Shown here: piece by piece, positions 31,964-49,410 of the stretch
Position numbering within the stretch: position 1 is the stretch's first letter
How the letters are laid out: each line of letters begins with the position of its first letter
Origin: Candidatus Obscuribacteraceae bacterium
GTDB lineage: Bacteria > Cyanobacteriota > Vampirovibrionia > Obscuribacterales > Obscuribacteraceae
DNA: 64,000 bases
Reading direction: 5' to 3'
Assembly: GCA_044226015.1 (NCBI GenBank)
Contig: JBGAHS010000004.1
Location: 320,001-384,000 of the forward strand
Position numbers and translations under genes: made by a program
The notes under the pieces: generated by a model
Database searches by the model: none
Told to the model about the DNA's origin: nothing
Seen by the model: the letters and a program-made list of their open reading frames with translations, nothing else

Positions 31964-32854
31964 ATGTCGCGTTTTGATTTGAGCCTGATTGAAGCTGGGC
32001 TCAGTACCTATTTAGTTGCTAAATCTGGGCAAAACGAAATTTGGGACGAGATTGTCTCTACCAATGATCGCGCGATTGAACTTGCCTTGAATGGTGCAGA
32101 GGAAGGGACGCTGGTTCTTGCTCGAAAGCAGACTGCTGGAAGAGGACGACAAGGGCGTACCTGGGTTTCGCCTCGCGATGCCGGCATCTTTATGAGCTTT
32201 ATTTTTCGCCCAAAACTGGAAGCACAAATGCTTCCGCTTTTCAGTTTTGTTGCTGCAGTTGCAGCAGCGACTGCAATTGAAAATGTTACTGGAACCAAGA
32301 TAGGATTGAAATGGGTCAATGACCTCGTATATGGTGGCAAGAAGTTGGGTGGTATTCTCGCTGAGATGCCAGGTTCTCAACGCTCTGTGGCCCGACCATC
32401 GAGTGCAGAGGCTAATGAAGCCAGCTTGCGTGACGGAGCCCAAAGCCCCCATTGGTTATTGCCACCAGCTTTAATTCTTGGAATGGGAATGAATCTTTCT
32501 CTTGAAGGCATAGAATTGCCTGCGGAATTGCAGGGCAAAGTTGAGTCGCTCGATAATATCTGTGGTGGCAAAGTTGATGCAAATCAAATTGTTGCTGAAC
32601 TCTGTAATTCTCTTGAAGAGCAATACAATCATTTGCGGCATAGCACACCAGAATTGGTAATCGACGAGTGGAAGAAATACTCGCATACACTGGGCAAGAG
32701 AATTCGGGCAAGTGTAGGAAATGAAGAACTCGAAGGCACCGCTAGTGATATCACCCCATCAGGAGCACTTGTGCTGACGCAAGATGATGGTTCTGTGCGT
32801 ATACTGCATGCTGGCGAGATAAGCATCAGGATGCAGGACGGCACGTACAGTTGA
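31964..32854 (+). CDS. birA: biotin--[acetyl-CoA-carboxylase] ligase (no N-terminal HTH)
   Basis: STN, QTAGRGRQGRTW, KWVND, KLGGIL, C-terminal GALVL...AGEI. Confidence 0.93.
   Translation: MSRFDLSLIEAGLSTYLVAKSGQNEIWDEIVSTNDRAIELALNGAEEGTLVLARKQTAGRGRQGRTWVSPRDAGIFMSFIFRPKLEAQMLPLFSFVAAVAAATAIENVTGTKIGLKWVNDLVYGGKKLGGILAEMPGSQRSVARPSSAEANEASLRDGAQSPHWLLPPALILGMGMNLSLEGIELPAELQGKVESLDNICGGKVDANQIVAELCNSLEEQYNHLRHSTPELVIDEWKKYSHTLGKRIRASVGNEELEGTASDITPSGALVLTQDDGSVRILHAGEISIRMQDGTYS
32589..32854 (+). repeat. direct repeat A copy 1 (birA 3' end)
   Basis: Matches 34383-34648 at offset 1794; 7 substitutions counted by eye plus a different stop codon. Confidence 0.95.
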
Positions 32855-32952
32855 CGAGTCTCCAGTCTGATCCTTTTTAGATTACGTCGAATTCTTTCGT
32901 CGCTTCTTGCATCTAGAGAACCAAGTTCTAATAACAACCTTCCGAGAAGTGC

Positions 32953-33861
32953 TTAGGTTTGGCTCGCATCCGATGCTGATTCAGGAATTGAATGGTGTGT
33001 GTGCTCGAAGATTCCGAGTTTCTTAAACAGTAGGTATCCAATAAAGGCAGTAGAACAGAAGCCAAAGAATTCAAATTTTGCATCCGAATGAAGTATGGTG
33101 AAAACAGAGTTTGTCTCTAGAGTTCCTCCCTTATAGTTCACTACAGATGCTGTGAATACGTTCTGTGCAACGTGGCAACCTATTGATAGTTCCAGGCTTC
33201 TAGATTCAATTGTGATGAAGGTAAGAAAGAAGCCGATGCTGAAATAGGTTAAGAAGCCAAAGATAAGATCAGCGGAAATTTCCGGGTTCGCCATATGGGG
33301 CAAACCAAATAGAATTCCAATCAATGAAGAAAGAAGTATTGCATTCTTGCTGAAACGAGACAGCGCTTGCAGAATATATCCCCTAAAAAACAATTCCTCA
33401 GAACCTGCCTGCAAAAAAGTTAAAGGAACTATCAGCGGAAGTTGAGCAAGAATTTCTGGTTTAAAAGAAAATGCATACTCTGACGGTCGAAGCAGATAAC
33501 CGATAAGTTGAGCTACCCCATTTAGCATAAACCAGCATAAGGCGCCTATTCCCATTACTTTCCAGTTTATTATGGCAGACGGCGTAATTAGCGTCTTGCA
33601 TTTTCTACCGTGCAAAAATGCAGTACTCATAAACACAGAAATAGTTAGTGGCGAGAACGAGGCACAACTTGCAACGTATTCTCGAAACTCGTTTTTTGGG
33701 AACTTTGATGGGTAGATAATTGCTGGACAAATAAGAAATGCGAGTATGGAACCCAGAACAATCCAGCAAAACAAAATGATCGGAAGCGCGACAGCATAGC
33801 GCCACGCCGCCTGCTTTCCGGTGCTCGAAATGTCTAGAAATTCGTTTGTAGAGTTTGTCAT
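32953..33861 (-). CDS. CPBP/Abi (CAAX protease family) intramembrane metalloprotease
   Basis: SEELFFRG, FGLPH, HVAQN motifs; multiple TMs; visibly AT-richer than flanking genes. Confidence 0.9.
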   Translation of the reverse strand: MTNSTNEFLDISSTGKQAAWRYAVALPIILFCWIVLGSILAFLICPAIIYPSKFPKNEFREYVASCASFSPLTISVFMSTAFLHGRKCKTLITPSAIINWKVMGIGALCWFMLNGVAQLIGYLLRPSEYAFSFKPEILAQLPLIVPLTFLQAGSEELFFRGYILQALSRFSKNAILLSSLIGILFGLPHMANPEISADLIFGFLTYFSIGFFLTFITIESRSLELSIGCHVAQNVFTASVVNYKGGTLETNSVFTILHSDAKFEFFGFCSTAFIGYLLFKKLGIFEHTHHSIPESASDASQT

Positions 33862-34110
33862 CGTCTAGCCCGTATATGTGATAGCAGATTGAAGAGAATA
33901 GATATGCAAAATCGCAAGCATGCTTATCTTACAAGATCGAGATCGAGTGTTTTGGTGCGCTCTTCTATAAAATTGCCACAAGGAGGAAAGCTCACCGTTG
34001 TTGGGGGCTAATGGTTTGTCATTAGCAATTGCATTCTCAAATGCTCTTGCCGCTGGTGGTCAGGTTAATCTGATGGAATCTGAATTCATGTTCTCCCAAT
34101 GCTTTTCATT

Positions 34111-34385
34111 CAAGCTTAATGTCTGAAAAGCATCGGTGCGTAACGAAAAAAAGAATGATTAAGGCTCGCTTATGATTAGCGGCTGTTATCAAGATCGTCT
34201 GTGTTATCCTCACATTCAAGTGTAAGAGCCAATCAGTCGGGAGCTCCAGCTTGAACGGAGTAAAAGAATGTTTCCCCTCTTTGATGACAACGACGATGGT
34301 TCGTCGTGGCATTGCTACTAATTTTTTGATTCTTTTGAATCTGATTTCCTTTGTGTTGCAAGCGATCGATCCATCTTGGACGTTG
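34111..34385 (+). pseudogene. repeat B copy 1: upstream region plus frameshifted 5' fragment of the rhomboid gene
   Basis: Aligns with 44251-44527; ATG at 34268; 2-bp deletion (TCGTGGC vs TCGTGTGGC) gives MFPLFDDNDDGSSWHCY*; truncated at 34385. Confidence 0.9.
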
Positions 34386-34648
34386 TTGCGGAACTCTGTA
34401 ATTCTCTTGAAGAGCAATACAATCATTTGCGGCATGGCACACCAGAATTGGTAATTGACGAGTGGAAGGAATACTCGCATACACTGGGCAAGAGAATTCG
34501 GGCAAGTGTAGGAAATGAAGAACTCGAAGGCAACGCGAGTGATATCACCTCATCAGGAGCACTTGTGCTGACGCAAGATGATGGTTCTGTGCGTATACTG
34601 CATGCTGGCGAGATAAGCATCAGGATGCAGGACGGCACGTACAGTTAG
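34383..34648 (+). pseudogene. repeat A copy 2: 3' fragment of birA
   Basis: Encodes VAELCNSLEEQ...QDGTYS, nearly identical to the BirA C-terminus, with no catalytic N-terminal part. Confidence 0.93.
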
Positions 34649-34845
34649 TAATTCTGCACGCTAATAACCACCAGCTAAACTGAATGAAATCGCCTCGCTG
34701 GAATGCTAAACAAGCAGGTCAACTAACAGTTGCGCTAAAGGCTACAGATAAAACCGTTGCGAACGTCAAAAAAAAGATGCTTTACTACCTGTAAATGTGC
34801 GAAAATAGATATAGACGTTAATGCTATTGCCTACAGATTGAAGCA

Positions 34846-37800
34846 ATGCGCAAATTTCATTTCGCATCACTATCTCTGCTCTCCTTTTTGAGCCTTTACT
34901 TCGGGCTGTATACAGCTGCACGAGCTGAAACTCCTTCTCCTCTCGATCGGACTGGCTTTCGACCGGGAGCGCAGGCTCCTCAAGCTGGTTCTAATTTGTA
35001 TCTTGGCGAACGCGCCATTCGGGTAGTAGATTTCAGCAAATCTCCGGTATTGGATATCAGAGGTAACCTTAATGTAAGTCGTGGCGCAATCCTCTACGCG
35101 GTTTCAACGAATCCGGCAATCGACACCGCAATAATCAGAGCCTACAGCATTTTCAACAGTGGATTGATTACTACTGTTCTTCCTCAAGGCGGAATTTCAG
35201 GATACTCAAATGCAATTCCGGGGCTAAATCTTTCTCTCATAGCGACTCACAAGTTGATTAATTCAGGACAAATCAGCAGTGCGGGAAACCTCAACCTTTG
35301 CGCTGGAGAATTGCTTAGCAATGGAAACAATTCCATTGTGCAAGCAATAAATAACCTGAATGTTTTCACTCCCGTTTTAGTCAATGCTGGAACAATGAGT
35401 GCGCAAAATTCCAACGTCACCATCAATAGTGCTTCATTGCTTTCGGCGACACTGAATAATTTGCCAAATTCTGCGGAACTAACCAACACCCTCAGCAATA
35501 GTTCGTTGAGCAACATATCGACGCAAATAACTAACAGCGGCTCGATACTAGCAGCTGCCGGAAACATCGATATCTCAGCAATAGCTGGCTCCGCACTAGC
35601 AATCGATAACAACCGTGGACTTATTAAATCCACCGGCGGCGACATTTCATTAGACGGCTCGTACGGCAAGAATGTTAGTTTGTTCGGTGGTACTATGCAA
35701 GGGGAAGCAGTCGCTGCCACTGCACCTGGTGCAAAGGTTGATCTCCATGCAGAAAGAATTGATGGAGCTGTTACTATCACTGGAGCCGTTGCCGCCGCAT
35801 CTGCTGAGCATGGCGACCTCAACATAGCTCAACTAAAACTTAGTGACGATCCTATCTTTGCGCTACGAGGGGGCGGCACTCTCACCATACAGGGGTTCTC
35901 CGCCGCATCTGCTAGTGACTTTGTGGCTTTGTCAGAGGGCGATATTGTCCTCTCTGGGACTGTCAATACCTCTGGTGGTTCGATAACTGCTGTGGCTGGG
36001 CACCTCTTCAAGGGTGAAAATGGTGACCCCTGTACGCACTGTTCCGGGAAATATTCAATACTAGGGTCGTCACCCAGTGGCGGTACCCTGACAATCAAAA
36101 CTGTGAATCTCGAGGCAGGTTCTAACAGCGTAACGCTTCAGGCAGATAAGCTCTACGTCGATTTCATACCAGGACCTGCTGCAAATGTCTATTCCCGGAT
36201 TCATGGAGGAAAAATCGTCATCAATGCGGATTCGATTGGTTTTGATAGCGTTCATCTCACTGTTTCTGCCGACGGTGCCACGGGGGGCACTGTTGATATT
36301 TCCACAACAAACACTCTAGCCATCGGAAATCGAATGGAGATTCATGCTGACGGAAGCAGTGGATCTGGCGGAAGAATCAGTATTAACTCAACTGCTGACA
36401 TTCTCTTGGTATCGCCGCAAGCGCTGACGGTAGACGCTTATGGTAGTGGCACTGGCGGTACTATTTCGTTAAGCAGCACCGATAGTATAGCCTTGTCTTC
36501 TTTAGCAATTAAGGCTGGTAACAACGGAGACGGAGGTAAGATAATCCTTTCTGGAGCAGATGTAGGCGCATTTGGCCATGCTGATTTGTCGGTAAACGGA
36601 AGTGGTGCTGGTTCTGGTGGGCAGATTTCGCTTCATGCAAAAGGTTCAGTGTTACTAGGTTCGAGTGAAGACCTGCAACTAGACTCACTTTCACTCTCGG
36701 CCACAGGCGGCTCCGCCAATTCATCTGCCGGTGACGGAGGTTCAATTCAAGTTAGCGCATTTGGTCTTGTCGTAGATCCTAACTCTTTGAATGTAAAAGC
36801 TCTGGGAAATCAGGGAAAAGGCGGCACGATAGACTTGTCGTCATCGTTTCGAGACCTCACTCTAAATGGCTCGATTGAAGCAAATGGACCTACGGGTGGT
36901 GGTAGCATAAAAATAAACACCGAAACACTCAAGCTTCCAACAGATCGCTCCGTATCGCTTACAGCATGCTCACTTGCAAGCGGGACCGGAGGCTCTATAT
37001 CCGTTACGAGCAGCATGAGCACGCAATATCTTTTGCTAGGACACGATAACGGTAATTTGAACATCAATACTGACGGATACAATGACGGAGGAACTGTTGC
37101 TGTCTCCGTTGCAAACTTGTCGATTGGAAGCGGCGGAATCTCAAGCCAGGGGCTTAATGGTGGAAGTGTTGATCTCAAAAGCGATGTAATTACGATAGGT
37201 TCAAACTCTATCAACTGCTCCGGATCGTCAGGTGTGGGTGGGCACATCACGATTAAGAGTAAGGATTTAACACTTGTCGATTCCAGTCTTGATGCTAGTG
37301 CATACAATGGCGGAATTATCGAAATAAGTTCTGACAAAATTACTGCTTACGGCAAAAACCTGATCAATGTTTCTGGCACCTTGCTGAGTAAGGGCGGACT
37401 AGTCTCTATTCAAACAAGTGGTTCACTAGCTCTGGGTGACCAATCAGGTCAGATAGAGTTATCTTCAATTGGTGGAGGCAATCAAGTCGTCGTGGATGCG
37501 AAAGAGGATCTTTCTCTTTTTGAAAATGCGTTTGATATAAGTCAAAGCAACAATCCCTTTGGTGGTGCAAGTATTACACTGAGTGCTGGTAAGACGTTGT
37601 CTCTATTTGATGGTATCAATGTATCTGGAACAGCAAATGGAAATGGTGGCATCATCACTATTTCAGCTAGCACATTGGCTTTGGCACAAGACAAAAATAT
37701 TCATCTGTCGGCGAATGCAGCGGGAATTGGTTCAGGCGGAACAGTAAAAATCACTACGGGGAACCCCCTTTCTATTTCTAATGCAGCAGGCAACTTATCT

Positions 37801-40800
37801 CTGTCTGCAACCGGTGGCTCTGAATTAGCAGCTTCGGGAAACGGAGGCTCGATTCAAATTTCATCGAGTGGGCCATTAGATTTATCGGCAGAAGCTATTA
37901 GCGTTGCTCCTTTAGGTCTTTCTGGGACAGGAGGAAATTATGATTTTAAAACAAGCGCCGATTTCATTTTGCATGGCTCGTTGAGTGCCGATGCAGCCGC
38001 TAACGGAGGAAATGGCGGAGTCATCAATATTTTTGCGGCTAAATCTTTTATTGCTGATAATGGAAGTGCAATTACGGCTCGGGCGTTTGGCGGAAATGGT
38101 AATGGCGGGAAAATTTCAGCCACATTTTTTACACAAACAATTCAGGGGACCTGCTTAAGCGGATTGCAGGTTATTGCTGATGCTAGTGGAAATGGTGCTG
38201 GGGGACAGATTTCACTTAGCACTGCGAGAATTCTTGGCTCCCCTGTAGTAGGTGGCGATATTTTGCTCGGAGAATCTGCGGGCGAAATCTCTCTGAGTGC
38301 AAGATCTTCCGGTTTGTCCACCGGTGGTTGTATCACTGTTCTTGCTCAAAATAATATAACGGTTAATCAGAATGCTATCGCGCTAAATGGACTTTCTCCA
38401 AGCGGTGGCTCGGGAAGATTGATTTTAGTTTCTTCTTACAATAATTACGGGGCGAATTTTGCTGGAAAGCTAACAGTGAATGGAAGTATTAGCATACTAA
38501 ATTCTTCCGGACTTCCAGCAGGAGAGATTTATCTCTCTGCAGGACGAAATGGAATTAGAGATACCACATTCGGTATCACAATCAATAGCGATCTCCAAGC
38601 CGGCTTGATCAGCGTAGTAAATTGGGGGGATAAAAACTCAACGACTGTCGTCCGGGGTGGCGTGTCGTTAACCGGAAACACGGTTGCCATAGCCACTCCG
38701 AGCTTAATCGTAGACGGTGATGATACAGCGAAGATTTCCATTAATGCTCAAAATCTTGCAATCGCTGTGCAAACCCCTGGAGCATCAAATAAATTGGTAT
38801 TAGGGCTCGCAACGACACCCGGTACCGTTTCAATCTTGTTGCCCGACGGTATGCAACAAAACGATCCGAATTTTGTTCTTCGCGCAGGTGTTTTATATCT
38901 CGGATCCAATGGAGAGATTCCGATCACAACCATAGATGACAGTCTGTATGGCTCGACAACAGAAAATTATAAGGTTAGTGGAACTGGCAGTTTTGGTTCA
39001 GCCATTGCTCCGCTGAAAATCGACACTGTTAATTTGGAAGTACATTCGGGGGGCGATGCCTATCTAGAGAATAAGTCTCAAAGCGCAGCAGCGACTATTT
39101 ATGTGAGTGGTGAAGCTCAGGGAAATCTTGATTTGACCACAGACGTCCCGCTGTTTGTGGGAAGTCAACAGCCGATCATTGCCTCGAAATTGTTTATTAA
39201 TGCCGGTGTCCAGGCAATTCTCCAGCTAGTTATTACTGATTACCTAAGTATCAAAAGTACCGGCTACGCAACTGCCTTAGTAAAAAAGAACTCTGCGCCA
39301 TTCATCGAAATAGGCGATAGTAGCGGTGCGCCCCTGTTAGTCACTAGTGATGATGCAATTTACGTAAACGGTAACCTGTCGGGAAGCGAAATTGTAGTTA
39401 ATAGCAAGAGCAGTTTGATAGTCAATGGAAATGCAGAGGCAAAACCCTCCGGACTGCAAAACGGACTTGTGGCATTTACTGGCAAGCTAGGACTGGAATT
39501 GAACGGCTCTATCGTTTCTGAAAATACAGAATTATCTACCAACGGACTAGCGAAGATTTCAGGTGACAATAGCTCGAAATCCTTATTCGTAACAAGCAAA
39601 GACTGCATTCAGCTTCCAAGTTCAAAGATTAGCACCGATTTCTTAGCAGCTTATTGTGGGTCTGTCGACCTTCAATCAAGCGACAACAGTATTTCACGTT
39701 TGATGCTGCAGTCCGCTGGAACTGGAAAGTTAAGCAGTACTATTCCCATTGAGATAATTCTGGATAAAACTTTGGTTTTTAACCCAGATCTAAACAAGAT
39801 GAATAGTGTTGCCGGCGATTTTGTAGTGAATGCTCCAGGGCTCATCTTTTCGGGACCGCTTGAAGTCGGAGCAAACCTCATTCTCCAATCAAATGCTGTG
39901 AATCATAGTTTCAGCGTTGGTTTGAATGAAGCTGGTTCTCTGAATGCCGTTGGAGCAATTCTAATCAATCAAGAAACATTCGGTCCTGTTTCAATCGGAA
40001 CGTTAACACCTGGTGGCTTGCAATTTGGAGGCAGTCATCTTTTGTCTTTTGCTGCTGGTGCCGCTGTTACTCCAAGCGTGGTTTCGTCCTCTGGTCCCAT
40101 CAAGTACACTCACGATGCAGCCGGTCAAATCCTCACAAGTGGCGGTTCGCTCGTTTTCTCAGGAAAAACATCTTTTGCAAGCACCACCGCAATTCAATCT
40201 GTGTTCGGCGCAAGTGAAGTTGAAGCCGCATCGAGCGTCGATGTCACAGGTGACTTAACTGTAAGAGCAAATGCAATCATCAATCCAAACGGGTTTAAAG
40301 CAAGCGGAATAATATATTTCGACCTTCAACTTGGTCGAACTATTACAAATCCTAATGGCGACATAGTTTTGACAAGCAACATGCTGATCAATAGTGGAGG
40401 ATCAAGTTTAACTCTTCTTGCAGCCGGTAACATTGTCGCAAATGGCGTTCCATCGATAAATCTAAGCACGGCGAAGGGGCTTGGTGGACAGCTGAACATC
40501 TTTGCTGGTTCTGCATTTGAGCAGGACCCGTTAGATCAAAGCAAATATCTGGTCACTGGCGCTTCCACCATGGGCGGTGACATATCACTTTCTAAGGTTT
40601 CTATAAATACCAGTTCAACAAGCAAATTATTTACAGCTGTAGATGGTGGAGATGTAAACCTTATCGCAAACCCCGGTACAGCTGCCCACGGCACTATCAG
40701 CGTGGGTGAGATAAACACTAGCTCGGCTTACGGAACCGCTGGTAATGTCAACATTATCGGTGCTGGTGGTATCACAGTGAGTGGTAGCATAAACACGACG

Positions 40801-43800
40801 GGGGCAGCGTCAGGAGCCAATGTTCTCTTAGCCGGATCTAGTGCCAAATATCCTATCGAGTTGAGCCATAGTCGAACCATTCAGGAGCACAGCATCTTCA
40901 GCACAGGCAGTGTCACAAGTGGCTCAGCGATTTTTGTTAGCGGTGGTATAAGTACTGGTTCAAGCCAGGGAAATGGAGGAGATATTTCAATTTATGCTGC
41001 CACAAAGATTCAAACCGGTTCCCTCACTAGTTCATCTGTACGACATAGCGGCAATATTGTAATCGGCTGTAATGATGGTTCCATATTCACAGGGGAGGTA
41101 AACACTAGCGCTTTGCCCTCTTCAGATAGTGCAGTCGCTGGCGCTGGTGGCAACTTTAAATTGCTCACTGGCGGTTCAGCCAAGATAAACGGCAGTGTGA
41201 TAACAACTGGAGGCATCCCTCTAGCTGCTGCGCATGCAATTTTAGGTGATGGTGGCAAAATTGAAATTTATGGCAAGAAAATCGGCAACGTCGGGTATGG
41301 AAGCGTTGTCATTAAAGGATACCTGGATTCTTCGGGTGGTTCATGTTCTGATTGCCCACTCTCCACTGGTGGCGCAGCTGGTGGCATATTAATTGATGTA
41401 GGCTCAATTCAAGTTGCCGGTGTGAAAGCTAATAAGACGGGGCCAGCTAGCATAATTGCATCGGGTGGCAGTTCACTGGCGCATAGCGGTAGCAATGGAA
41501 ACGTTCTAATCTCAACCTATGGTACGCAAGAGCTTCCTTCAAACTTGAATCTAGGATCGTCTCTCCTAACTGAATTTGCTTTACCAGGTGCCGCTTTCAC
41601 TGTGGGCAACCCGACGCTGGTTAATGGGACACGCGGTATAATTATCAGCGGTAGTTCTGTAGTTAAGAACAACACACCAGGGACTGGAGGAATAACTGCC
41701 AATTTTATCAGTGCCGATTCAACTCCTGGCGGATTCAAGGTTGGAAGCGTTAGTATCGTTCCCTCTGGTGGCAAAGAATCGATAAATCTTGGTGGCAACC
41801 TCGTTAATATCACTCAAGGTTCTACAAGCAGAACCAAGGTGACAGCAGCTGAGGCTCTTGTTCTTTATTTGCTTGTCCGAGGAGAATCTCAGTCAATTGG
41901 TCTGAATGGCAAAGGACAATTGACCGAATCCAATCCAGCAGGGGCAAGCAGTAATGTTGTAATTCATTCTGCTGATATTCCCCCTGCAATAACAGCTCTG
42001 AATCTTAAACCAATCGATTCTCAAAAGGGAATTGACTTTACTATTAACGGCGACTACCCGACTCTTACCCTGACTGGTACTGCCAGTAATATCAATGGCA
42101 ATCTCCTCTTCAACACCGGTGGAACCGTCGCCAGTGTTTTTTCAAGCATGCCACTGCGCGTAGCGGCTGCTGGCTCGATAACAAGCGATGCTGATTTATC
42201 TATTTCATCGACCGTAAGCAAAGGTGCTCTCTCGATTGTAAACAACGGAACTATTTCTGCCAAAAACATAATTCCAATCGCAGCATCTGCCGGAATTAGC
42301 ATTGAAAATAATTCTGGTGGTTCTTTAATCGCGAATTCAATTTTGATTCCCACGTCTTTTCTCCCAAACCGCATCACGGTTAACAGCCGCGGTGTATTTC
42401 AAAACGCGAAGCTAGTCTTCGACAATTCGACTTTTCCCCTGTCAATTACAGGGGGTAATTCTGCGAATTTAACCGGTGCGGGGAATTCCCCTTTGACGAT
42501 TAGGTTAGGCGTTAAGGGCGATGTCTCTTTAGCGGGAAATTTAGCTAGTTCTAGCTCGATAGACATTTCTGCAACAACCATCAATTCGCAGCCGACAAAT
42601 TTGACTGTGGAGAATGGTGCACAGATTAGTTCTCCAAAGCAAGTTTTGATTTCTGCCACAGGCAGTTTGAATATCAAAACTAATGCCACCATCAAGAGCG
42701 GAACCGACTTGAAACTCTCCGGACTCGGCATTTCTATTTTCCCCTCCGGAACTTTAGAAGCTGTGACAGGGCTGGCAATCGACGCAAAAGGAGGACCTTT
42801 AGATTTCGCGGGATCAGTCTCTAGCTCTCGTGGTGTCGTTAGTCTAAGTTCGTCTGCAGCAGTCTCGCTTGATGGAAAATTGGTCGCTGGAACGACCAAT
42901 GGAAACCTTCCATTTCAGCCCTTGCTCAACAAACTGGCAGCCTCTTCCATAAAAATTGTTGGCGCTTCCGTCGATCTAGGAACGCGGCAGAATACAGAAA
43001 TCACTGCATCCGGTGGGGATGTAAATATTGTTGCCAAAAGCGGTGATCTGATACTTGGGTCGGCAAGCGGCAAGAATTCAATGCAAGCATACGGCGGCAA
43101 TGTGATTCTGTTGGCTAAGGGGAATATCCTTGGTGCGTCGGGTAATGTGATCAAGGCTAGTTCGCAAGGTGGCAGCTCTGCCATTGGTGGTGGCATAGAG
43201 TTAGGAGCTGGTGTGACTAACAGCTCTATTTGGACGGCTAATTCACAGAAATCGGGAACTGTAAAAGGAGTTTTTGCAAGTGATTATGACCTGCGAAATC
43301 CAACCAGTGGCGCCAATACTAGTGGCGTTGTTTTGTCCACTTCCAATGGTAGTCCGGCGACAACAGCAAATATCAATCTAAGCAGCTCAGGTTCCCAGCA
43401 AGCAATTCTAGAGCTTCAAGGCGGAAAGCAAGTCTTTCACGCAACTGGGAGTGCTAACAAAATCAATCTGGATGGAGGCTCTTTCTCCGTAACTTCGTTA
43501 AAGCCAGTTTGTCTTAGATCAGAATCGGATATTCGTCTTCGCAATTTAGTCAGTGAGAATAATTTGAATGAAATGAAGGCTAGAACAATAGCGCATTTAA
43601 TAACAGAGGGAAGCGATGAGATTCTCGCATTGCAGGCTGAGGATGAACAAAATCATTTGAAAGCAGCACAATCAGAAATTGTGCTTCACAACGCCAATGT
43701 ATTTATACGACCGGTGGTGAAAACGATGCTTATATCTAAGTTTGGAACTATTGAATGCAGAAAAGGGGCGCAGCTTTACCTCGTTTGTGACGAAAGTAGC

Positions 43801-44178
43801 CTCCGAATAGTTAATTGCGGTAACTCCAAAGATGTGTGGATGCAGATTGGTGCCATGCGACTGCTCCTAGAGACAGGGCAGGAACTCATGGTGTCAAAGG
43901 CGTCAGAGCCATTGCTGTTTAACGACAGCATCGCACGTCGCAATCACCAGTCATTTGTACTGAGCGACTCTAACTTGCAAGGCACCGTATGTGATGCTTC
44001 CTTAGTTAGCATCCTGAGCAACGTCAAGCTTTTGAGCGTGTTGCGTCATCCTCGCAACAAAATTGAGCGAGAGTTATCAGCACGCCTCTGCAAAAATGCT
44101 ATGGCTCTTCAAACGGTCACAGGAAGGCGCGGAGCTTATCAGATAATGGGTACGACTAAGCCTCGCGTCAAAGCCTGA
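34846..44178 (+). CDS. giant secreted filamentous-haemagglutinin-like beta-helical repeat protein
   Basis: 3110 aa; signal peptide; G/S/T/N-rich repeats (GxGGxIxL); compositionally distinct C-terminal region of about 220 aa. Confidence 0.85.
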   Translation: MRKFHFASLSLLSFLSLYFGLYTAARAETPSPLDRTGFRPGAQAPQAGSNLYLGERAIRVVDFSKSPVLDIRGNLNVSRGAILYAVSTNPAIDTAIIRAYSIFNSGLITTVLPQGGISGYSNAIPGLNLSLIATHKLINSGQISSAGNLNLCAGELLSNGNNSIVQAINNLNVFTPVLVNAGTMSAQNSNVTINSASLLSATLNNLPNSAELTNTLSNSSLSNISTQITNSGSILAAAGNIDISAIAGSALAIDNNRGLIKSTGGDISLDGSYGKNVSLFGGTMQGEAVAATAPGAKVDLHAERIDGAVTITGAVAAASAEHGDLNIAQLKLSDDPIFALRGGGTLTIQGFSAASASDFVALSEGDIVLSGTVNTSGGSITAVAGHLFKGENGDPCTHCSGKYSILGSSPSGGTLTIKTVNLEAGSNSVTLQADKLYVDFIPGPAANVYSRIHGGKIVINADSIGFDSVHLTVSADGATGGTVDISTTNTLAIGNRMEIHADGSSGSGGRISINSTADILLVSPQALTVDAYGSGTGGTISLSSTDSIALSSLAIKAGNNGDGGKIILSGADVGAFGHADLSVNGSGAGSGGQISLHAKGSVLLGSSEDLQLDSLSLSATGGSANSSAGDGGSIQVSAFGLVVDPNSLNVKALGNQGKGGTIDLSSSFRDLTLNGSIEANGPTGGGSIKINTETLKLPTDRSVSLTACSLASGTGGSISVTSSMSTQYLLLGHDNGNLNINTDGYNDGGTVAVSVANLSIGSGGISSQGLNGGSVDLKSDVITIGSNSINCSGSSGVGGHITIKSKDLTLVDSSLDASAYNGGIIEISSDKITAYGKNLINVSGTLLSKGGLVSIQTSGSLALGDQSGQIELSSIGGGNQVVVDAKEDLSLFENAFDISQSNNPFGGASITLSAGKTLSLFDGINVSGTANGNGGIITISASTLALAQDKNIHLSANAAGIGSGGTVKITTGNPLSISNAAGNLSLSATGGSELAASGNGGSIQISSSGPLDLSAEAISVAPLGLSGTGGNYDFKTSADFILHGSLSADAAANGGNGGVINIFAAKSFIADNGSAITARAFGGNGNGGKISATFFTQTIQGTCLSGLQVIADASGNGAGGQISLSTARILGSPVVGGDILLGESAGEISLSARSSGLSTGGCITVLAQNNITVNQNAIALNGLSPSGGSGRLILVSSYNNYGANFAGKLTVNGSISILNSSGLPAGEIYLSAGRNGIRDTTFGITINSDLQAGLISVVNWGDKNSTTVVRGGVSLTGNTVAIATPSLIVDGDDTAKISINAQNLAIAVQTPGASNKLVLGLATTPGTVSILLPDGMQQNDPNFVLRAGVLYLGSNGEIPITTIDDSLYGSTTENYKVSGTGSFGSAIAPLKIDTVNLEVHSGGDAYLENKSQSAAATIYVSGEAQGNLDLTTDVPLFVGSQQPIIASKLFINAGVQAILQLVITDYLSIKSTGYATALVKKNSAPFIEIGDSSGAPLLVTSDDAIYVNGNLSGSEIVVNSKSSLIVNGNAEAKPSGLQNGLVAFTGKLGLELNGSIVSENTELSTNGLAKISGDNSSKSLFVTSKDCIQLPSSKISTDFLAAYCGSVDLQSSDNSISRLMLQSAGTGKLSSTIPIEIILDKTLVFNPDLNKMNSVAGDFVVNAPGLIFSGPLEVGANLILQSNAVNHSFSVGLNEAGSLNAVGAILINQETFGPVSIGTLTPGGLQFGGSHLLSFAAGAAVTPSVVSSSGPIKYTHDAAGQILTSGGSLVFSGKTSFASTTAIQSVFGASEVEAASSVDVTGDLTVRANAIINPNGFKASGIIYFDLQLGRTITNPNGDIVLTSNMLINSGGSSLTLLAAGNIVANGVPSINLSTAKGLGGQLNIFAGSAFEQDPLDQSKYLVTGASTMGGDISLSKVSINTSSTSKLFTAVDGGDVNLIANPGTAAHGTISVGEINTSSAYGTAGNVNIIGAGGITVSGSINTTGAASGANVLLAGSSAKYPIELSHSRTIQEHSIFSTGSVTSGSAIFVSGGISTGSSQGNGGDISIYAATKIQTGSLTSSSVRHSGNIVIGCNDGSIFTGEVNTSALPSSDSAVAGAGGNFKLLTGGSAKINGSVITTGGIPLAAAHAILGDGGKIEIYGKKIGNVGYGSVVIKGYLDSSGGSCSDCPLSTGGAAGGILIDVGSIQVAGVKANKTGPASIIASGGSSLAHSGSNGNVLISTYGTQELPSNLNLGSSLLTEFALPGAAFTVGNPTLVNGTRGIIISGSSVVKNNTPGTGGITANFISADSTPGGFKVGSVSIVPSGGKESINLGGNLVNITQGSTSRTKVTAAEALVLYLLVRGESQSIGLNGKGQLTESNPAGASSNVVIHSADIPPAITALNLKPIDSQKGIDFTINGDYPTLTLTGTASNINGNLLFNTGGTVASVFSSMPLRVAAAGSITSDADLSISSTVSKGALSIVNNGTISAKNIIPIAASAGISIENNSGGSLIANSILIPTSFLPNRITVNSRGVFQNAKLVFDNSTFPLSITGGNSANLTGAGNSPLTIRLGVKGDVSLAGNLASSSSIDISATTINSQPTNLTVENGAQISSPKQVLISATGSLNIKTNATIKSGTDLKLSGLGISIFPSGTLEAVTGLAIDAKGGPLDFAGSVSSSRGVVSLSSSAAVSLDGKLVAGTTNGNLPFQPLLNKLAASSIKIVGASVDLGTRQNTEITASGGDVNIVAKSGDLILGSASGKNSMQAYGGNVILLAKGNILGASGNVIKASSQGGSSAIGGGIELGAGVTNSSIWTANSQKSGTVKGVFASDYDLRNPTSGANTSGVVLSTSNGSPATTANINLSSSGSQQAILELQGGKQVFHATGSANKINLDGGSFSVTSLKPVCLRSESDIRLRNLVSENNLNEMKARTIAHLITEGSDEILALQAEDEQNHLKAAQSEIVLHNANVFIRPVVKTMLISKFGTIECRKGAQLYLVCDESSLRIVNCGNSKDVWMQIGAMRLLLETGQELMVSKASEPLLFNDSIARRNHQSFVLSDSNLQGTVCDASLVSILSNVKLLSVLRHPRNKIERELSARLCKNAMALQTVTGRRGAYQIMGTTKPRVKA

Positions 44179-44202
44179 GTGTTATGCAATGACCAGGGTA
44201 TT

Positions 44203-44230
44203 TCGTCGCTCAAGACTCGTCGCTCAAGAC
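44203..44230 (+). repeat. 14-bp perfect tandem duplication
   Basis: TCGTCGCTCAAGAC x2, between the giant gene stop and the start of repeat B copy 2. Confidence 0.85.
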
Positions 44231-44250
44231 TGTTTATCTGGGACGATCTT

Positions 44251-44527
44251 CAGCTTTAACGTCCGAAAACTACTGCTACGTAAGAGAAAGCGGGATGATT
44301 AAGCTGCGCTTATGATCGGGCGGCGTTGTCAAGATTGTCTGTAATATCTTCACATTCAAGCGTAAGAGCCAATCAGTCGGGTGCTCTAGCCTGAACGGAG
44401 TAAAAGAATGTTTCCCCTCTTTGATGACAACGACGATGGTTCGTCGTGTGGCATTGCTACTAATTTTTTGATTCTTTTGAATCTGATCTCCTTTGTGTTG
44501 CAAGCGATCGATCCATCTTGGACATTG
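44251..44527 (+). repeat. repeat B copy 2 (rhomboid upstream region and 5' end)
   Basis: Aligns with 34111-34385 at offset 10140 (10142 after the indel). Confidence 0.9.
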
Positions 44528-45040
44528 AATCTAATCTTCACTCCGTACCTGGTGTTGACGCATCAGCAAAGTGTGACTACGCTTCTTTCGCATTGCTTCC
44601 TGCACGCTGACATTGTCCACCTGGTGTCAAACCTCTGGTATTTGTTTGTTTTTGGAGATAATGTCGAAGATGAGATGGGTTCATTCAACTTCTTTGTCTT
44701 CTTTTTATGCTGCGGAGTTCTTTCTGGTTTGACAGAACTCATGCTCTTCGCTCATCATCCGCATCAGTCTTTTCTTGGTGCGTCAGGGGCTATCAGCGGT
44801 GTCATGGCGGCGTATATGGTGCTTCATCCAGGCAATCGAATTCGATGTTTCGTCGGACTTCCCTACTTCTTTCCGAAACTTCCTTCATGGATATTGATTG
44901 GTTTCTTCATAGCGATGAACTCCTTGAGTTACATGGCTGACCCGGGAATGAGTGAAGGCGTTTCATACGTCGGGCATATTGGAGGCTTTATTGCAGGGCT
45001 GGTTTTAGTTCGCTTTGCGGGTGTAAAACAGCGATATTAA
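44408..45040 (+). CDS. rhomboid intramembrane serine protease
   Basis: FLHA..HL..N, FGDNVED, GASG, GHIGG motifs; GGAG RBS. Confidence 0.93.
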   Translation: MFPLFDDNDDGSSCGIATNFLILLNLISFVLQAIDPSWTLNLIFTPYLVLTHQQSVTTLLSHCFLHADIVHLVSNLWYLFVFGDNVEDEMGSFNFFVFFLCCGVLSGLTELMLFAHHPHQSFLGASGAISGVMAAYMVLHPGNRIRCFVGLPYFFPKLPSWILIGFFIAMNSLSYMADPGMSEGVSYVGHIGGFIAGLVLVRFAGVKQRY

Positions 45041-45045
45041 ACCGA

Positions 45046-46899
45046 TTGATTTCGCTCTGTGTGTGGAAAATTAAGACGAGACAGGTGGTGCCGATTGCTG
45101 TGGAACGTCCGTTTCGAGAACAGGTAAAAACCGCTGAGCTTGTCTCTGATGAGTCCAGCGACGTAGCTGCTCATCGTTCTCTGCCTAAGTCTTGCCCCTG
45201 TTGTCAGCGTTATTTCTCCTCTGAAAGTCCTGAGACGGTTTGCCCAGAAGATTCTAGCTTGCTGGTTCCTTTGAGTTCTCCCTTAACTGGAACAACAATT
45301 GATGGGAAATACAGGGTCGAACATCTTCTGGCTAGTGGGGCATGGAGCGAGGTCTTTCTAGCAAGCCACGATGAACTCGACAAAAAAGTGGCGATTAAAG
45401 TTTTACACCTGAATTTGGTTTCCGAGCCAGCAAGAGTCAGGCGCTTCGAAGAGGAAGCGCGAAATGTGAGTCGTCTCCATGACCCAGGAATTGTGAGTGT
45501 TCACGATTTTGGACTCACTGCTGATGGGCGTCCTTACATGGTTATGGATTACATCGAGGGCGTAAGCCTCAGTGAAGCAACCAAGCAGCGGCTGCTAGAC
45601 CCGCTTACGGCAACTCATTTGTGTATTCAACTCGCAAGTGCTTTGCAGACGGCTCACGAGCACGGAATCATACACAGAGATGTAAAACCTGCAAACGTCA
45701 TGCTTTCTGAAAACGAGGGAAAGGAATCTTGTTTTATTCTTGATTTTGGCGTTGCAAAAACCATCATGGGCGAGCAAAAATCTGATGTGACCAGAACTGG
45801 TGAAGTGCTCGGTACGCCTGCCTATATGAGTCCTGAACAGTGTCGCAGCCAGGCACTTGATGCGCGTTCAGATATTTATTCTCTGGGCTGTGTTTTTTAC
45901 GAGATGCTCACCGGCGAGCGACTCGTAAAAGGCGACAATTCATTCGTTTGCATGAAGTGGCACATGGAAGGCATGCCCCCCGAAATCACAGGGGAACATC
46001 CAATTTTCTACAGCCTCTCATCTATTGTTTTGAAGATGCTGGAGAAAAAGCCAGAGCATAGATATCAAAGCATGAGTGCCCTTGTCGCTGACCTGCAGGA
46101 TGCTTTAAGTGGTGCGGTGATTGTTCCGCCCGCCAGAAAGATGAAGATTGATAAGCGCTATTTGTTGATGTTGATTTTGCCGATTCTTGCTTGTCTGTTT
46201 TTTCTAATTCCGCGCGGAAGCGGACCTGTTTTGGTTCCAGAGCACCCTCCAAACGCCATCGAACGAAATGCGCTAAAGAAGGTCGCCGAGAAAACTCTGG
46301 CTGACAAGTTGGAAAACGGCTTCAGAGATTACATTCAGCAGCCGCACTTCAAAGAGAAAAAGAAATATTTTGAAGATTTATTTGCCAGAAGAACTCCTCT
46401 TCCAAAAACGGATGTTCCGCAAGAAATGATGGTCAGTGTTTTAGAGCCGATAACTACGAAGCTTCCCGTTATTCTTGGCGATGTTGATGTTGACGTCACT
46501 TACACTCAAGGACCAGTCTCATTAGTTTTGCATTCCCCATATCCTGTTAAATGGAAAGTGCACGCAGCAAGTGGTGTTAATCTCGTGAGAGTGGTGTTGG
46601 AAGGAGACGCGAAAAGTACTGTTCAAGATTTGCCGAGCGATATCGAAGTGATGGATCACAGCGGAGCCGACGCGCGTATCGCTAATAGCCCTTTAGAAAA
46701 TGGTCTTGCGAATCAATCGTTTTTGAGAAAAACTGGTGGTGGGGCAATATCGCGTTTTGGTATGACTTGGACTACCTTTCAAGTAAAACGTCTGGGTGAA
46801 GATATGAAATTTGAGGTTGGTCCCGGTGACAAAGAGTGGCTTTCCGAGTATATTCTGCGGCTTATGAAAGAAGACGAGGTTCTGGGTCCAGCATTTTAA
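45046..46899 (+). CDS. Hanks-type Ser/Thr kinase with N-terminal Cys (Zn-ribbon-like) motif, TM and ectodomain
   Basis: CPCC..CPED, VAIK, HRDVKPAN, DFG, YMSPE, one TM; start codon uncertain. Confidence 0.92.
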   Translation: MISLCVWKIKTRQVVPIAVERPFREQVKTAELVSDESSDVAAHRSLPKSCPCCQRYFSSESPETVCPEDSSLLVPLSSPLTGTTIDGKYRVEHLLASGAWSEVFLASHDELDKKVAIKVLHLNLVSEPARVRRFEEEARNVSRLHDPGIVSVHDFGLTADGRPYMVMDYIEGVSLSEATKQRLLDPLTATHLCIQLASALQTAHEHGIIHRDVKPANVMLSENEGKESCFILDFGVAKTIMGEQKSDVTRTGEVLGTPAYMSPEQCRSQALDARSDIYSLGCVFYEMLTGERLVKGDNSFVCMKWHMEGMPPEITGEHPIFYSLSSIVLKMLEKKPEHRYQSMSALVADLQDALSGAVIVPPARKMKIDKRYLLMLILPILACLFFLIPRGSGPVLVPEHPPNAIERNALKKVAEKTLADKLENGFRDYIQQPHFKEKKKYFEDLFARRTPLPKTDVPQEMMVSVLEPITTKLPVILGDVDVDVTYTQGPVSLVLHSPYPVKWKVHAASGVNLVRVVLEGDAKSTVQDLPSDIEVMDHSGADARIANSPLENGLANQSFLRKTGGGAISRFGMTWTTFQVKRLGEDMKFEVGPGDKEWLSEYILRLMKEDEVLGPAF

Positions 46900-46955
46900 G
46901 CTTAGGGCACGTTGGCTTGCGGGAGTAGGTTTCCTTGTAGTGTAGGAGTATGTCG

Positions 46956-47023
46956 GGATCTCGATGTTGCAAGGAGCCTGGTAGTCCAAGGATTCCGATG
47001 TTGAAAGGAGTCTGATGGTCCAG
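46956..47023 (+). repeat. degenerate 34-bp tandem repeat
   Basis: GGATCTCGATGTTGCAAGGAGCCTGGTAGTCCAA / GGATTCCGATGTTGAAAGGAGTCTGATGGTCCAG. Confidence 0.7.
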
Positions 47024-47432
47024 GAGCTAGCATGGAGCCCGGTGGCGCTGGGGTCCTGGAGGATTGAGCGGATTAGGTGATCGTCGGGCACGTAATGCCT
47101 TGGGCCATCTATATTTACAGAGAATGCGTAGTCGAGGCAGAGTACATGTTTATGTATCGGGGTTGCGGAGGCACGCAGGAATTGGTGCAGTCCGACTGTC
47201 GGAATCAACAAGCATCTGTGTATTTTTGCACGTGTAAATCAGTCATACACATCGGCATAATCTTTAGTATATCGGTTAAGGATTTACTATCATGGTGTGG
47301 TTGAAGCTTGCTAATTCAAGAACTTATTTAGTTCGAACAAGTTCCGGACGAATAATTCGTATTTCGGGATTTCTCAAACTTATCTAGACTGACAATTTAG
47401 AGCAGCCAACAAAGACAAAATGTTCTCTGCTC

Positions 47433-49304
47433 TCAATTGTTCCATTTCATAGGGTTTTTCGCTAACAGTTTACCTGTTGAAAGCTCATAAACATAGACGG
47501 TGTAGTTCGTTGAACGAGCGTCTTCTGGCACAAAAATAATTGCCATTCCTTTACTAACAAAAAACTGATTGCCAGCCAGGGCTAAAGGCACCACTTTATC
47601 TAAGGGTATTGTGTCTATCTTTTGTCCGGCTGGCGTCAGTTCATAGATGCTAGTGCTGACGTCGTCTGGTTGTGCCAGTGCATACACCCGGTCTGTGTCA
47701 GCATCGTAGGAGATGCCTCTCAGTTCTCTATAAACATCGCTTCGCACTTTAGGTGGAGTAAATAGCATGGCCCAGTTTTGGTGCGAGCCATAAGCTGCGT
47801 GCGGGTTATACATGCTGAGGCAGTCATGGTCGCCTGGTCCGGCACCGAAAACAAAAAACTTCTGTCTTTTTGTGTCGTAGGCGATGCTCTCGATGCCATC
47901 AAGTTCAACTTCTCTTCGAGTCTTCAGAAATTCCGCTGCATTGGATCCGTCTTTCAAGCTGAACAGTTTGTCTTTCGTCGCGCAGTAAAAAGTGTTGAGT
48001 TCAGGCGCATAGGTGACGCTTACCGCTCCAGCTGGCAAAGGCATAACCCTACCGTGCGAAATTGGACCGAAGCCGTTGCTTTCCGCTAACATGGGGGTGC
48101 CGTCAGAGGCACCACCATTGGTGTGAAGGACGAGCCAAAATCTCAAATCTTTAAGTGTTCCAAATTGTGCCGTTGGCTGGGTTAGCTTATGAACTGTTAT
48201 CGGCTTGGGGACAAGGCTTTGCCAGTTAATTGCGAACAGCAGCAAAAGCAGTGCTGCGATAGCTCCTACAGTAGTAAGTTGCTTGTTCCAATTCTTGCGT
48301 GGCTTAGGTATGTGCAGCGGTATGCCCTGGCAAATTTTTTCAAGGTCTGAGCGCAGTTCAGCAACGGATGCATATCTTAAGTCTGCATCTTTATTGAGCA
48401 TTTTCTTCAGCACGAAATCCAGGTCTCTTGCTGCAGTTGTGGGAGATGTGTATGTGGGGACTTTCTTGCTGAGGTGCCAATCCATACAATCGAATGGGTT
48501 TTCTGCCTGCACCATCCGCTCGCCATTGAGCATTTCGTAAAACACACATCCAAGCGAGTAGATGTCTGAGCGTCCATCTACCTGCTGTCCCATACATTGT
48601 TCCGGGCTCATATAAGCTGGTGTTCCAAGCACTTCGCCCGTTCGCGTAACATCACTGCGCTGTTCGTCCACCATTGTTCTGGCAATGCCGAAGTCGACAA
48701 GTTTTGCAATCGTTTTCTGGCTGACGTTTTGCTCAAACATTATGTTGGCAGGCTTGATGTCGCGGTGAATAATATTTTGCTCGTGAGCCATTGTTAGCGC
48801 ATCACAAAGCTGTATCAGGTAGCCGCATGCTTCCTCTTCTTCCAGGCTAGATTTGCGCAACTTCTCTGTTAGTGACTCACCCTCCACATAATCCATAACC
48901 ATGTATGGGCGACCATTTTGAGTCAGTCCAAAATCGTGTACGCTGGCTATTGAACTATGTTTTAACTTTGTGACTGAGCGTGCCTCTTCCTGAAATCGCG
49001 CAACTTTATGCGGGTCTGATACCATAGTCAGATGCAAGACTTTTAGTGCGACGACTTTGTTCAAGCGCTTGTTGTGCGCTAGGAAAACCTCGCTGGAGGC
49101 TCCAGATCCTAGCAGCTTGATCACTTCATATCGTTCATCGATAGTCGTGTTGACCAGCGATTGCGAAACGGGTGCCAGCAACGATTTATCCATCGGACAG
49201 CAGTTTGATTCATAGTCTGCCGCGAAGTGAATGTTGCACTTCGGGCAAAGCTTTGCGAGTTTTATTTCTGCCTTTAACTCATCCGTGTTCATCTGATTCG
49301 TCAA
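47433..49304 (-). CDS. Hanks-type Ser/Thr kinase with N-terminal Cys motif, TM and beta-propeller-like ectodomain
   Basis: CPKC..CPMD, VALK, HRDIKPAN, DFG, YMSPE, TM; blade-like segments SVTYAP, SIAYDTKR, GISYDAD. Confidence 0.92.
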   Translation of the reverse strand: MTNQMNTDELKAEIKLAKLCPKCNIHFAADYESNCCPMDKSLLAPVSQSLVNTTIDERYEVIKLLGSGASSEVFLAHNKRLNKVVALKVLHLTMVSDPHKVARFQEEARSVTKLKHSSIASVHDFGLTQNGRPYMVMDYVEGESLTEKLRKSSLEEEEACGYLIQLCDALTMAHEQNIIHRDIKPANIMFEQNVSQKTIAKLVDFGIARTMVDEQRSDVTRTGEVLGTPAYMSPEQCMGQQVDGRSDIYSLGCVFYEMLNGERMVQAENPFDCMDWHLSKKVPTYTSPTTAARDLDFVLKKMLNKDADLRYASVAELRSDLEKICQGIPLHIPKPRKNWNKQLTTVGAIAALLLLLFAINWQSLVPKPITVHKLTQPTAQFGTLKDLRFWLVLHTNGGASDGTPMLAESNGFGPISHGRVMPLPAGAVSVTYAPELNTFYCATKDKLFSLKDGSNAAEFLKTRREVELDGIESIAYDTKRQKFFVFGAGPGDHDCLSMYNPHAAYGSHQNWAMLFTPPKVRSDVYRELRGISYDADTDRVYALAQPDDVSTSIYELTPAGQKIDTIPLDKVVPLALAGNQFFVSKGMAIIFVPEDARSTNYTVYVYELSTGKLLAKNPMKWNN

Positions 49305-49410
49305 CGATTTGTACTGGAGAAAGCATCAAGTTGTGTGTGAACCGCAAATCGGAATCGAGATTGCGCCCAATTGCTCTATACCCGTATGGACATTTTTATC
49401 ATTAGTTCTA

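Follow-up and report, generated by a model that had tools for sequence, protein, structure and literature searches.

How can one interval of a chromosome hold an intact biotin-protein ligase gene (birA) and a stranded second copy of its 3′ end, an intact rhomboid protease gene and a second copy of its 5′ end, and two different cargo genes between them? The question is raised by a 64,000-nt window (C7:320001-384000) of the 8.19-Mb genome G000, which belongs to an uncultured sludge bacterium and comprises 13 contigs; the window is the whole stretch of DNA that was analysed, and positions given without a contig refer to it. The gene order runs from intact birA through a CAAX protease gene, the rhomboid upstream region with a 5′ fragment, a birA 3′ fragment and an open reading frame (ORF) of 3110 amino acids (the giant gene) to the intact rhomboid gene, as the preliminary description of this DNA had stated. 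The locus probably records a one-off fusion in which the cell's own recombination joined two working alleles of one gene slot, birA-CAAX-rhomboid and a postulated birA-giant-rhomboid. The features of the fused locus are as follows.

31964..32854, plus strand: birA, intact biotin-protein ligase gene, left anchor of the slot; PF03099 (BPL_LplA_LipB) and PF02237 (BPL_C), TIGR00121 over the cut-off.
32589..32852, plus strand: repeat A copy 1 (A1), the last 88 birA codons to the first base of the stop codon; 264 bp, 97.3% identical to A2.
32953..33861, minus strand: cargo 1, CAAX/Rce1-like membrane protease of 302 amino acids; PF02517, E 2e-16.
34111..34385, plus strand: repeat B copy 1 (B1), the rhomboid upstream region and first 40 codons, frameshifted; 87% identical to B2.
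34383..34385, plus strand: junction J, the TTG with which the rhomboid fragment ends and the birA fragment begins; seen in the sequence and in contigs of runs X1 and X2.
34383..34648, plus strand: repeat A copy 2 (A2), the stranded birA 3′ end in open frame with its own stop (TAG TAA); from alignment to A1.
34846..44178, plus strand: cargo 2, Ser/Gly-rich protein of 3110 amino acids, likely secreted or surface-exposed; predicted beta-helix and signal-peptide-like start.
44251..44527, plus strand: repeat B copy 2 (B2), the 5′ part of the intact rhomboid gene with the region upstream of it; from alignment, with run X4 matching from 44295 on.
44408..45040, plus strand: intact rhomboid protease of 210 amino acids; PF01694, E 3.5e-29.

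The locus is framed by two direct repeats. Repeat A (32589-32852 against 34383-34646, 264 bp) contains 7 substitutions at a spacing of 1794 bp, and repeat B (34116-34385 against 44256-44527, with weaker homology back to about 34111/44251) is 87.2% identical over 273 columns and flanks about 10.14 kb; the 7 substitutions and the lengths of the two units, already given in the preliminary description, were confirmed by alignment. The similarity of repeat A had also been said to end exactly at the birA stop codon. It does end near the stop, but identity ceases after the first base of that codon (TGA in copy 1, TAG TAA in copy 2), and the last two bases then assigned to the repeat differ. The two copies of A are separated by 4 non-synonymous and 3 synonymous differences. 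Divergence in repeat B is graded: many differences lie left of 34155, 20 columns differ from 44295 on, and right of 34252 only 2 substitutions and one 2-bp deletion were found, leaving identical blocks of 54, 40 and 35 bp. Both coding substitutions are synonymous, and the deletion (34305/34306) shifts the frame of the B1 rhomboid fragment, which meets a stop after 17 codons; this frameshift is absent from the preliminary description. The repeats interleave and overlap by 3 bp (TTG, 34383-34385), a microhomology at a single junction. Each is present in exactly two copies in the whole genome (BLAST E 2e-125 and 2e-89, respectively), far beyond chance.

Both birA ends stop at the same codon with unrelated DNA beyond. 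Because of these shared stops and the synonymous nature of the rhomboid-fragment substitutions, the gene ends appear to derive from two formerly working alleles; matching birA stop positions would seldom result if DNA had been inserted at random into a dead fragment. With the 2-bp deletion, the rhomboid start has come into frame with the BirA C-terminal fragment (region 34322-34648), and the stop at codon 18 prevents a fusion; a 90-residue ORF from TTG 34376 would yield the BPL_C domain alone.

Public sequencing runs bear on whether the tandem is real. Six of them (X1-X6) hold part of 32000-41900, each as contigs without raw reads; X1-X3 come from one sample, possibly the source of the assembly, and X4 from another study. 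Among the matches listed, X1 had depths of 11.1 upstream, 10.7 over the CAAX stretch, 11.8 and 11.3 over the giant gene and 11.7 downstream in unique sequence, and the collapsed repeats were deeper (19.8 and 17.5). Junction J is bridged by an X1 contig of 69 bp (34352-34420, depth 14) with 31 letters to its left and 35 to its right; an X2 piece that matches 34306-34420 without any difference carries it too. That two strains were assembled into a chimera is excluded because the depth of each cargo equals that of the flanks rather than summing to it, and because reads cross the junction; the earlier view of a real tandem holds. Run X5 yielded short near-identical pieces of the CAAX region (33408-34104) and of the 5′ part of the giant gene at depth 2-6, with no piece across J. 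Run X3 was excluded from use (depth 1-4, no cover beyond about 38,400).

The short allele was found in X4, which represents a strain about 99% alike and holds birA-CAAX-rhomboid on one contig of 11,160 bp. This contig follows 32557-34116 (2 differences), continues with 49 letters of its own and resumes at 44295-47500 (19 differences, one gap); it skips 10,178 bp of the window, which in turn lacks no more than 49 bp of the short allele. Fifteen of the 19 differences in the right part lie in 46674-47263. This leaves no more than 4 for the stretch in which 20 columns separate B1 from B2, and X4 is therefore read as the left end of B1 followed by the rest of B2. From a point in the range 32480 to about 32600, near the left end of A, the window and X4 are near-identical (last difference at 32479). 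The protein cluster of BirA has 2 members; one, P0002 (296 amino acids), has the A1-type C-terminus, and no full-length BirA with the A2 residues occurs in the cluster.

Judging from the gene ends, the birA-giant-rhomboid allele very likely existed. Run X6, from a sister lineage about 82-84% alike, was examined through 24 of 72 pieces listed. Its birA contig runs 341 letters past 32387, and its giant-gene contig starts 255 letters before 34769, lengths that would fit adjacency of birA and the giant gene; among the same pieces, all of them diverged, no contig joins the two. An empty-site allele for repeat A was not seen in the runs. Other alleles are present in X2 (12 differences in 31985-32626, 54 in 39918-41537), which may represent a second tandem strain or a mixture. 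Differences in the flanks are patchy among the window, X2 and X4 (12 in 31985-32626, 2 in 32557-34116, 15 in 46674-47263), as counted without a genome-wide baseline. The X2 alleles of the giant gene (39918-42725) also diverge patchily, with 54 differences per 1620 bp and 17 per 1001 bp beside stretches with 1-4, and for this reason the giant gene seems to recombine among strains. A metagenome scan with the rhomboid protein kept 80 of 102 loci, none above 44% identity and hence none at strain level, and an exact 27-mer of B gave 0 matches in the genome contigs open to the search.

The self-comparison of the genome returned 9 two-copy local repeats (at least 100 bp and at least 85% identity), A and B being two of them. 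A second scar was recognised at G000:C1:691505-698214, where an intact response regulator gene (691505-692182) is followed by three cargo ORFs (one for a tetratricopeptide repeat protein), a 3′ copy of the regulator gene and a convergent lexA. The 3′ copy (467 bp, 94.6%) contains a frameshift and a stop and ends 3 bases past the stop codon. The interval varies in relatives, in which the NFACT gene and lexA lie as little as 36 bp or as much as about 20 kb apart. The C1 scar has the same build as the birA locus and is older. A 726-bp repeat on C11 was set aside as it sits among Rhs-like cassettes, a likeness judged by eye. Among the pairs listed, the filter for interleaved A-B-A-B order also returned tandem-repeat arrays and interleaved repeats of 200-500 bp (80-98%) at C6:245238-292021 and C3:1-6445.

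According to the favoured reading, the cell would have taken up DNA, probably by transformation, from a strain about 2-3% apart. A single illegitimate join would have linked rhomboid codon 40 to birA codon 209 through the 3 shared bases, and one homologous crossover in the shared flank would have finished the insertion. The outcome would be a gain of cargo in place of an exchange, with the stranded gene pieces as a by-product. Two orders of events may be considered. In the first, which is slightly simpler and to which we give about an even chance, the 10.14-kb giant unit would have been the later arrival. Closed at J, either as a circle or in a tandem-duplicated piece, it would have crossed over with a CAAX allele at the left edge of B; B1 would then be mostly donor DNA, and X4 would resemble the recipient and could be used as it stands. 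In the second, a serious but less favoured candidate, the 1.8-kb CAAX unit would have been added to a giant-gene allele, A2 would be the displaced resident end, and the lineage of X4 would later have lost the giant gene. The second order gains support because near-identity to X4 starts just before A and because the C1 scar exists. The preliminary description had proposed homology-facilitated illegitimate recombination as the route. The microhomology join agrees with it, but a plain linear giant fragment predicts that X4 matches B1, and X4 follows B2, so an extra step is needed. Of the two alleles that this description took to be fused, the short one is now seen in X4.

Several observations weigh against this reconstruction. 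The birA-giant-rhomboid allele was seen in no run or genome. Because both repeats interrupt the short-read contigs, only the assembly gives the phase of the whole array, and X1 may itself be the source of that assembly. Both orders place a crossover at the left edge of B, where the match is poor; this is unexpected given the identical blocks of 54, 40 and 35 bp further right. The 49 letters of X4 fit neither a clean integration nor a clean deletion, for which 38 or 39 would be expected. Three shared bases are expected by chance in about 5 of 100 random joins. As regards uptake of DNA, comEC, two dprA and one comM/YifB homologue are present in the genome; competence homologues over the cut-off also occur in 8 to 10 of 14 control genomes, and since most controls match too, they do not show transformability.

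The best-surviving competitor is duplication followed by replacement, in which a local tandem duplication at TTG was succeeded by a double crossover that swapped the cargo of one copy. The shape of J is that of a tandem-duplication joint, small duplications without flanking repeats are reported for pneumococcus in the part of the source available (PMC3784515), and both A2 (4 of 7 changes non-synonymous) and the B1 frameshift look like decay. A duplicated CAAX unit, however, predicts that B1 equals the short allele, and X4 follows B2; a duplicated giant unit predicts identity of B1 and B2 beside J, and they differ only 3 bases off (34382/44524) and heavily in 34155-34251. A second allele is still required as donor, and a third to fit X4. 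We consider this course unlikely.

Crossovers between the repeats were considered next to the depth data. An A-A crossover would leave birA-giant-rhomboid and a B-B crossover birA-CAAX-rhomboid, with birA intact in both. Either would be a one-way loss and not a programmed switch, because a return needs DNA from outside. Depths in X1 are flat within about 10%, with no marked loss or amplification of either unit. In X2, one contig continues from 43351-44447 into 34306-34420, as would be expected of a circle or an amplification. This joint may be a graph artefact, because it lies across the 40-bp identical block and the run has a depth of 4-6 and is split into 25-29 records. A further-reaching view would connect these elements: slots without an integrase would grow by capturing rival alleles whole, the array would be a parking state with both cargos present that RecA resolves into one parent or the other, and an excised 10-kb circle would re-enter further strains at the rhomboid promoter. 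We hold it to be improbable. If it were true, a giant surface protein would be gained, amplified and lost in sludge populations without a mobile element, the X2 joint would be the circle and X4 the cured form.

The preliminary description had suggested that the repeats could act as a recombinase-free switch. In a reversible form of this proposal, RecA would excise, amplify and re-insert the 10.14-kb giant unit, or that of the CAAX gene, so frequently that the cell surface varies within a population. A short allele does exist (X4), the X2 contig has a circle-type joint (44447 back to 34306), and the giant cargo has an adhesin-like predicted fold. Against this, the 40-bp identical block passed by the X2 joint is longer than the assembly word, the flat X1 depths extend over both units, and X4 is no clean excision product, since its 49 letters occur in neither copy. 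The repeats are diverged, excision alone is one-way, and 91 of the 92 surveyed genomes with a match to the BirA C-terminus are without such a repeat, the second birA 3′ end being confined to G000. A switch is accordingly not supported and is regarded as a rather remote explanation.

An intact gene followed by cargo and a stranded 3′ end is the usual layout of integrative elements that use gene 3′ ends. A site-specific element in the birA 3′ end, with an integrase since lost or acting in trans, would therefore agree with the layout, and the genome has 19 tyrosine-recombinase matches, along with 4 resolvase and 2 weak rve matches. The nearest tyrosine recombinase, however, lies about 82 kb away (C7:270134), and there are no resolvase or rve matches on the contig of the window. 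In the window itself, PF00589 (tyrosine recombinase), PF00239 (resolvase) and PF00665 (rve) gave no match and no tRNA was found; the earlier statement that integrase and transposase are absent is upheld for these three profiles, other transposase families not having been searched by profile. The repeats are 264-275 bp long with an abrupt microhomology edge. Of nine 20-mers taken at the boundaries, 7 are unique and the other 2 have two more matches with 3 mismatches; they form no repeated family and reveal no reused attachment core. An exact 26-mer of A had 0 matches in the viral contigs open to the search, and repeat B would be left unexplained; such an element is thus very improbable. Elsewhere in the genome (C11:1244000-1271000), a C-terminal cassette array, Rhs-like as judged by eye from its ORFs, is interrupted by three tyrosine-recombinase genes.

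The weakest proposal, an assembly chimera of co-occurring strains or a giant unit existing as a free circle beside a CAAX-only chromosome, could appeal to the metagenomic sample, the other alleles in X2 and short-read contigs that do not span the repeats, but it is dismissed on the equal depths of cargos and flanks, the deeper repeats, the bridging of J in two runs and the lack of a replication gene in either unit, which makes a free circle at exactly one copy unlikely.

The fusion of two slot alleles was then viewed in the context of the family, in which birA faces a conserved gene pair across a variable interval. The remaining features of the slot in the window are given below.

45046..51387, no single strand: further slot cargo, two convergent Ser/Thr kinases and a PMT_2-type membrane glycosyltransferase; Pfam.
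51377..55031, minus strand: right anchor of the slot across the family, formed by apt and recJ in convergent orientation to birA; TIGR01090 and TIGR00644 over the cut-off.

The family survey comprised 104 genomes, 92 of which match the BirA C-terminus. The apt gene is convergent with birA on the same contig in 77 of these 92, lies on another contig in 9, has another arrangement in 4 and gave no row in 2. In the 77 genomes, the gap between birA and apt ranges from 5 bp to 24.5 kb (below 300 bp in 32, 300-999 bp in 9, 1-5 kb in 27 and above 5 kb in 9), the 18.5 kb of G000 being the second largest; these counts are descriptive, as related genomes are not independent. The largest slot (24.5 kb, G114:C186:90535-115040) contains polyketide-synthase and glycosyltransferase genes without a local repeat. 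Slot cargos are mutually unrelated and include spermidine-synthase-like, kinase, universal stress protein, DltB-like, glycosyltransferase, PhoD and polyketide synthase module genes. The delimitation of the hotspot in the preliminary description needed revision: the region behind birA is variable, but the right anchor is apt-recJ, and rhomboid itself is cargo. Close homologues of the rhomboid and CAAX proteins occur in one of 30 relatives (G004, 54% and 46%), on contigs other than that of its birA, whose slot is nearly empty. On this sequence comparison, birA and apt-recJ are the fixed family anchors, and rhomboid is patchy older cargo turned local anchor within this species. Kinases similar to the window pair sit directly behind birA in G007, and the pair may be old cargo of the same slot. 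A search for direct repeats at 45 loci (43 around birA or apt; 38 relatives) returned tandem arrays and one paralogue pair, with no gene-end scar.

As to the genes right of rhomboid, the kinase pair (45046-49304) consists of convergent genes whose C-termini are unrelated to each other. RecJ (51891-55031, 1046 amino acids) has a conserved C-terminal region past the RecJ profile, and the length of the linker varies in relatives. The guanine-plus-cytosine content over 32855-34110, the CAAX cargo stretch, is 41.9%; trinucleotide composition bears no mark of foreign origin in either cargo (both at the 86th percentile); promoter and terminator scans gave a signal no better than chance; and HIP1-like words are not enriched (142 observed, 100 expected).

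The giant cargo protein contains 14% Ser and 13% Gly, a hydrophobic signal-peptide-like start and very long Gly/Ser-rich repeats, and has no match in Pfam, NCBIfam or PHROGs. Residues 30-479 were modelled as a parallel beta-helix with a predicted local distance difference test score (pLDDT) of 88, based on a 96-row alignment. The top structural match was EtpA (Z 19.2, root-mean-square deviation (rmsd) 11.6, 359 aligned), followed by the secretion domains of HMW1 (Z 18.6, rmsd 3.7, 266 aligned) and EtpA (Z 18.2, rmsd 3.1, 263 aligned); autotransporters and tailspikes came next at Z 16-18, and lyases were close too (Z 16-17). Foldseek gave no match at E 0.001, and the atlas matches to a haemagglutinin repeat (0.88) and FecR (0.86) are leads only, both being below the 0.9 level. 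From these models, it is a fair guess that the protein is adhesin-like. A single-sequence model of the C-terminal 444 residues was unusable (pLDDT 32). A full-length relative, P0011, is 39% identical. Matches to the N-terminus (E 1e-25) occur in 15 of 103 family genomes, none at slot coordinates. The protein family is lineage-wide, with 22 tblastn segments in G000 corresponding to many paralogues. In G084 (C8, C13), open frames of this family exceed 15,000 amino acids and have no Pfam name. TpsB (PF03865) had no genome match in a search whose control was also blank everywhere, and the neighbours of the giant gene are not TpsB. No relevant paper on this lineage or on its giant proteins came up in the literature search.

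Among known systems, TpsA adhesins (HMW1, EtpA, HxuA, FHA) resemble the giant cargo only, through the predicted N-terminal parallel beta-helix, the signal-like start and the Gly/Ser-rich repeats. The giant protein differs from them in having no Pfam haemagglutinin match, an identity of 12-17%, other beta-helices that fit nearly as well and no TpsB neighbour.

The closest footprint is that of insertion with long target duplication (ILTD), defined for restriction-modification genes by Furuta, Abe and Kobayashi in 2010 and, in the sections of that paper available, found mostly in naturally competent species (PMC2853133). As in the birA locus, the inserts are below 20 kb, imperfect direct repeats span a few hundred bases (target duplication above 30 bp; left-right repeats from 384/412 to 417/423 among the rows of its Table 3 considered), no mobile element is involved, an empty-site allele occurs (here for B, in X4), and the repeats extend over start or stop sites. 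Unlike the class as published there, the cargos here are a CAAX protease and a giant protein and no restriction-modification genes; in addition, two repeat pairs interleave at one junction, and the insert includes part of the other flanking gene, a sign that the donor was an allele of the same slot. The footprint is therefore one already described for restriction-modification genes, and the birA locus belongs to a kind already known. A literature search, with most subscription literature and the supplements of PMC2853133 outside its range, yielded no description of a tandem fusion between two slot alleles in which both flanking fragments survive.

Homology-facilitated illegitimate recombination, in the account available (PMC3240628), has one homologous end and one illegitimate end with 3-10 bp of microhomology, and circularisation of linear DNA followed by single-crossover integration is reported there in Escherichia coli. 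The 3-bp microhomology and the lack of a dedicated recombinase are shared. In contrast, insertion is there usually paired with a deletion of similar size, and here the flanks are duplicated. The onset of near-identity near the left end of A would suit a linear donor with a single homologous anchor, and equally one that was circular or duplicated. Transformation merodiploids of Streptococcus pneumoniae (Johnston et al. 2013, PMC3784515), as far as the portion considered describes them, share partial diploidy, one novel junction and instability by recombination between copies, but their joints lie mostly between insertion-sequence repeats and double the same genes, whereas the birA locus has microhomology and different cargo.

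Integrase-free hotspots (PMC5635113) and minimal mobile elements (PMC3787668; also PMC1797815) likewise have variable cargo between conserved genes, here birA and apt-recJ, with no integrase or transposase found. In the excerpts considered, those models involve replacement by double crossover, whereas the birA locus is an addition with stranded gene ends. Integrases are absent from many bacterial hotspots, and the usual hotspot model, with a double crossover at the flanking genes, explains exchange and not growth. The birA locus is a snapshot of how a slot may grow, in which two alleles, one joint and both scars are readable and the short allele is present in another study, and it provides a usable test case in a little-studied lineage.

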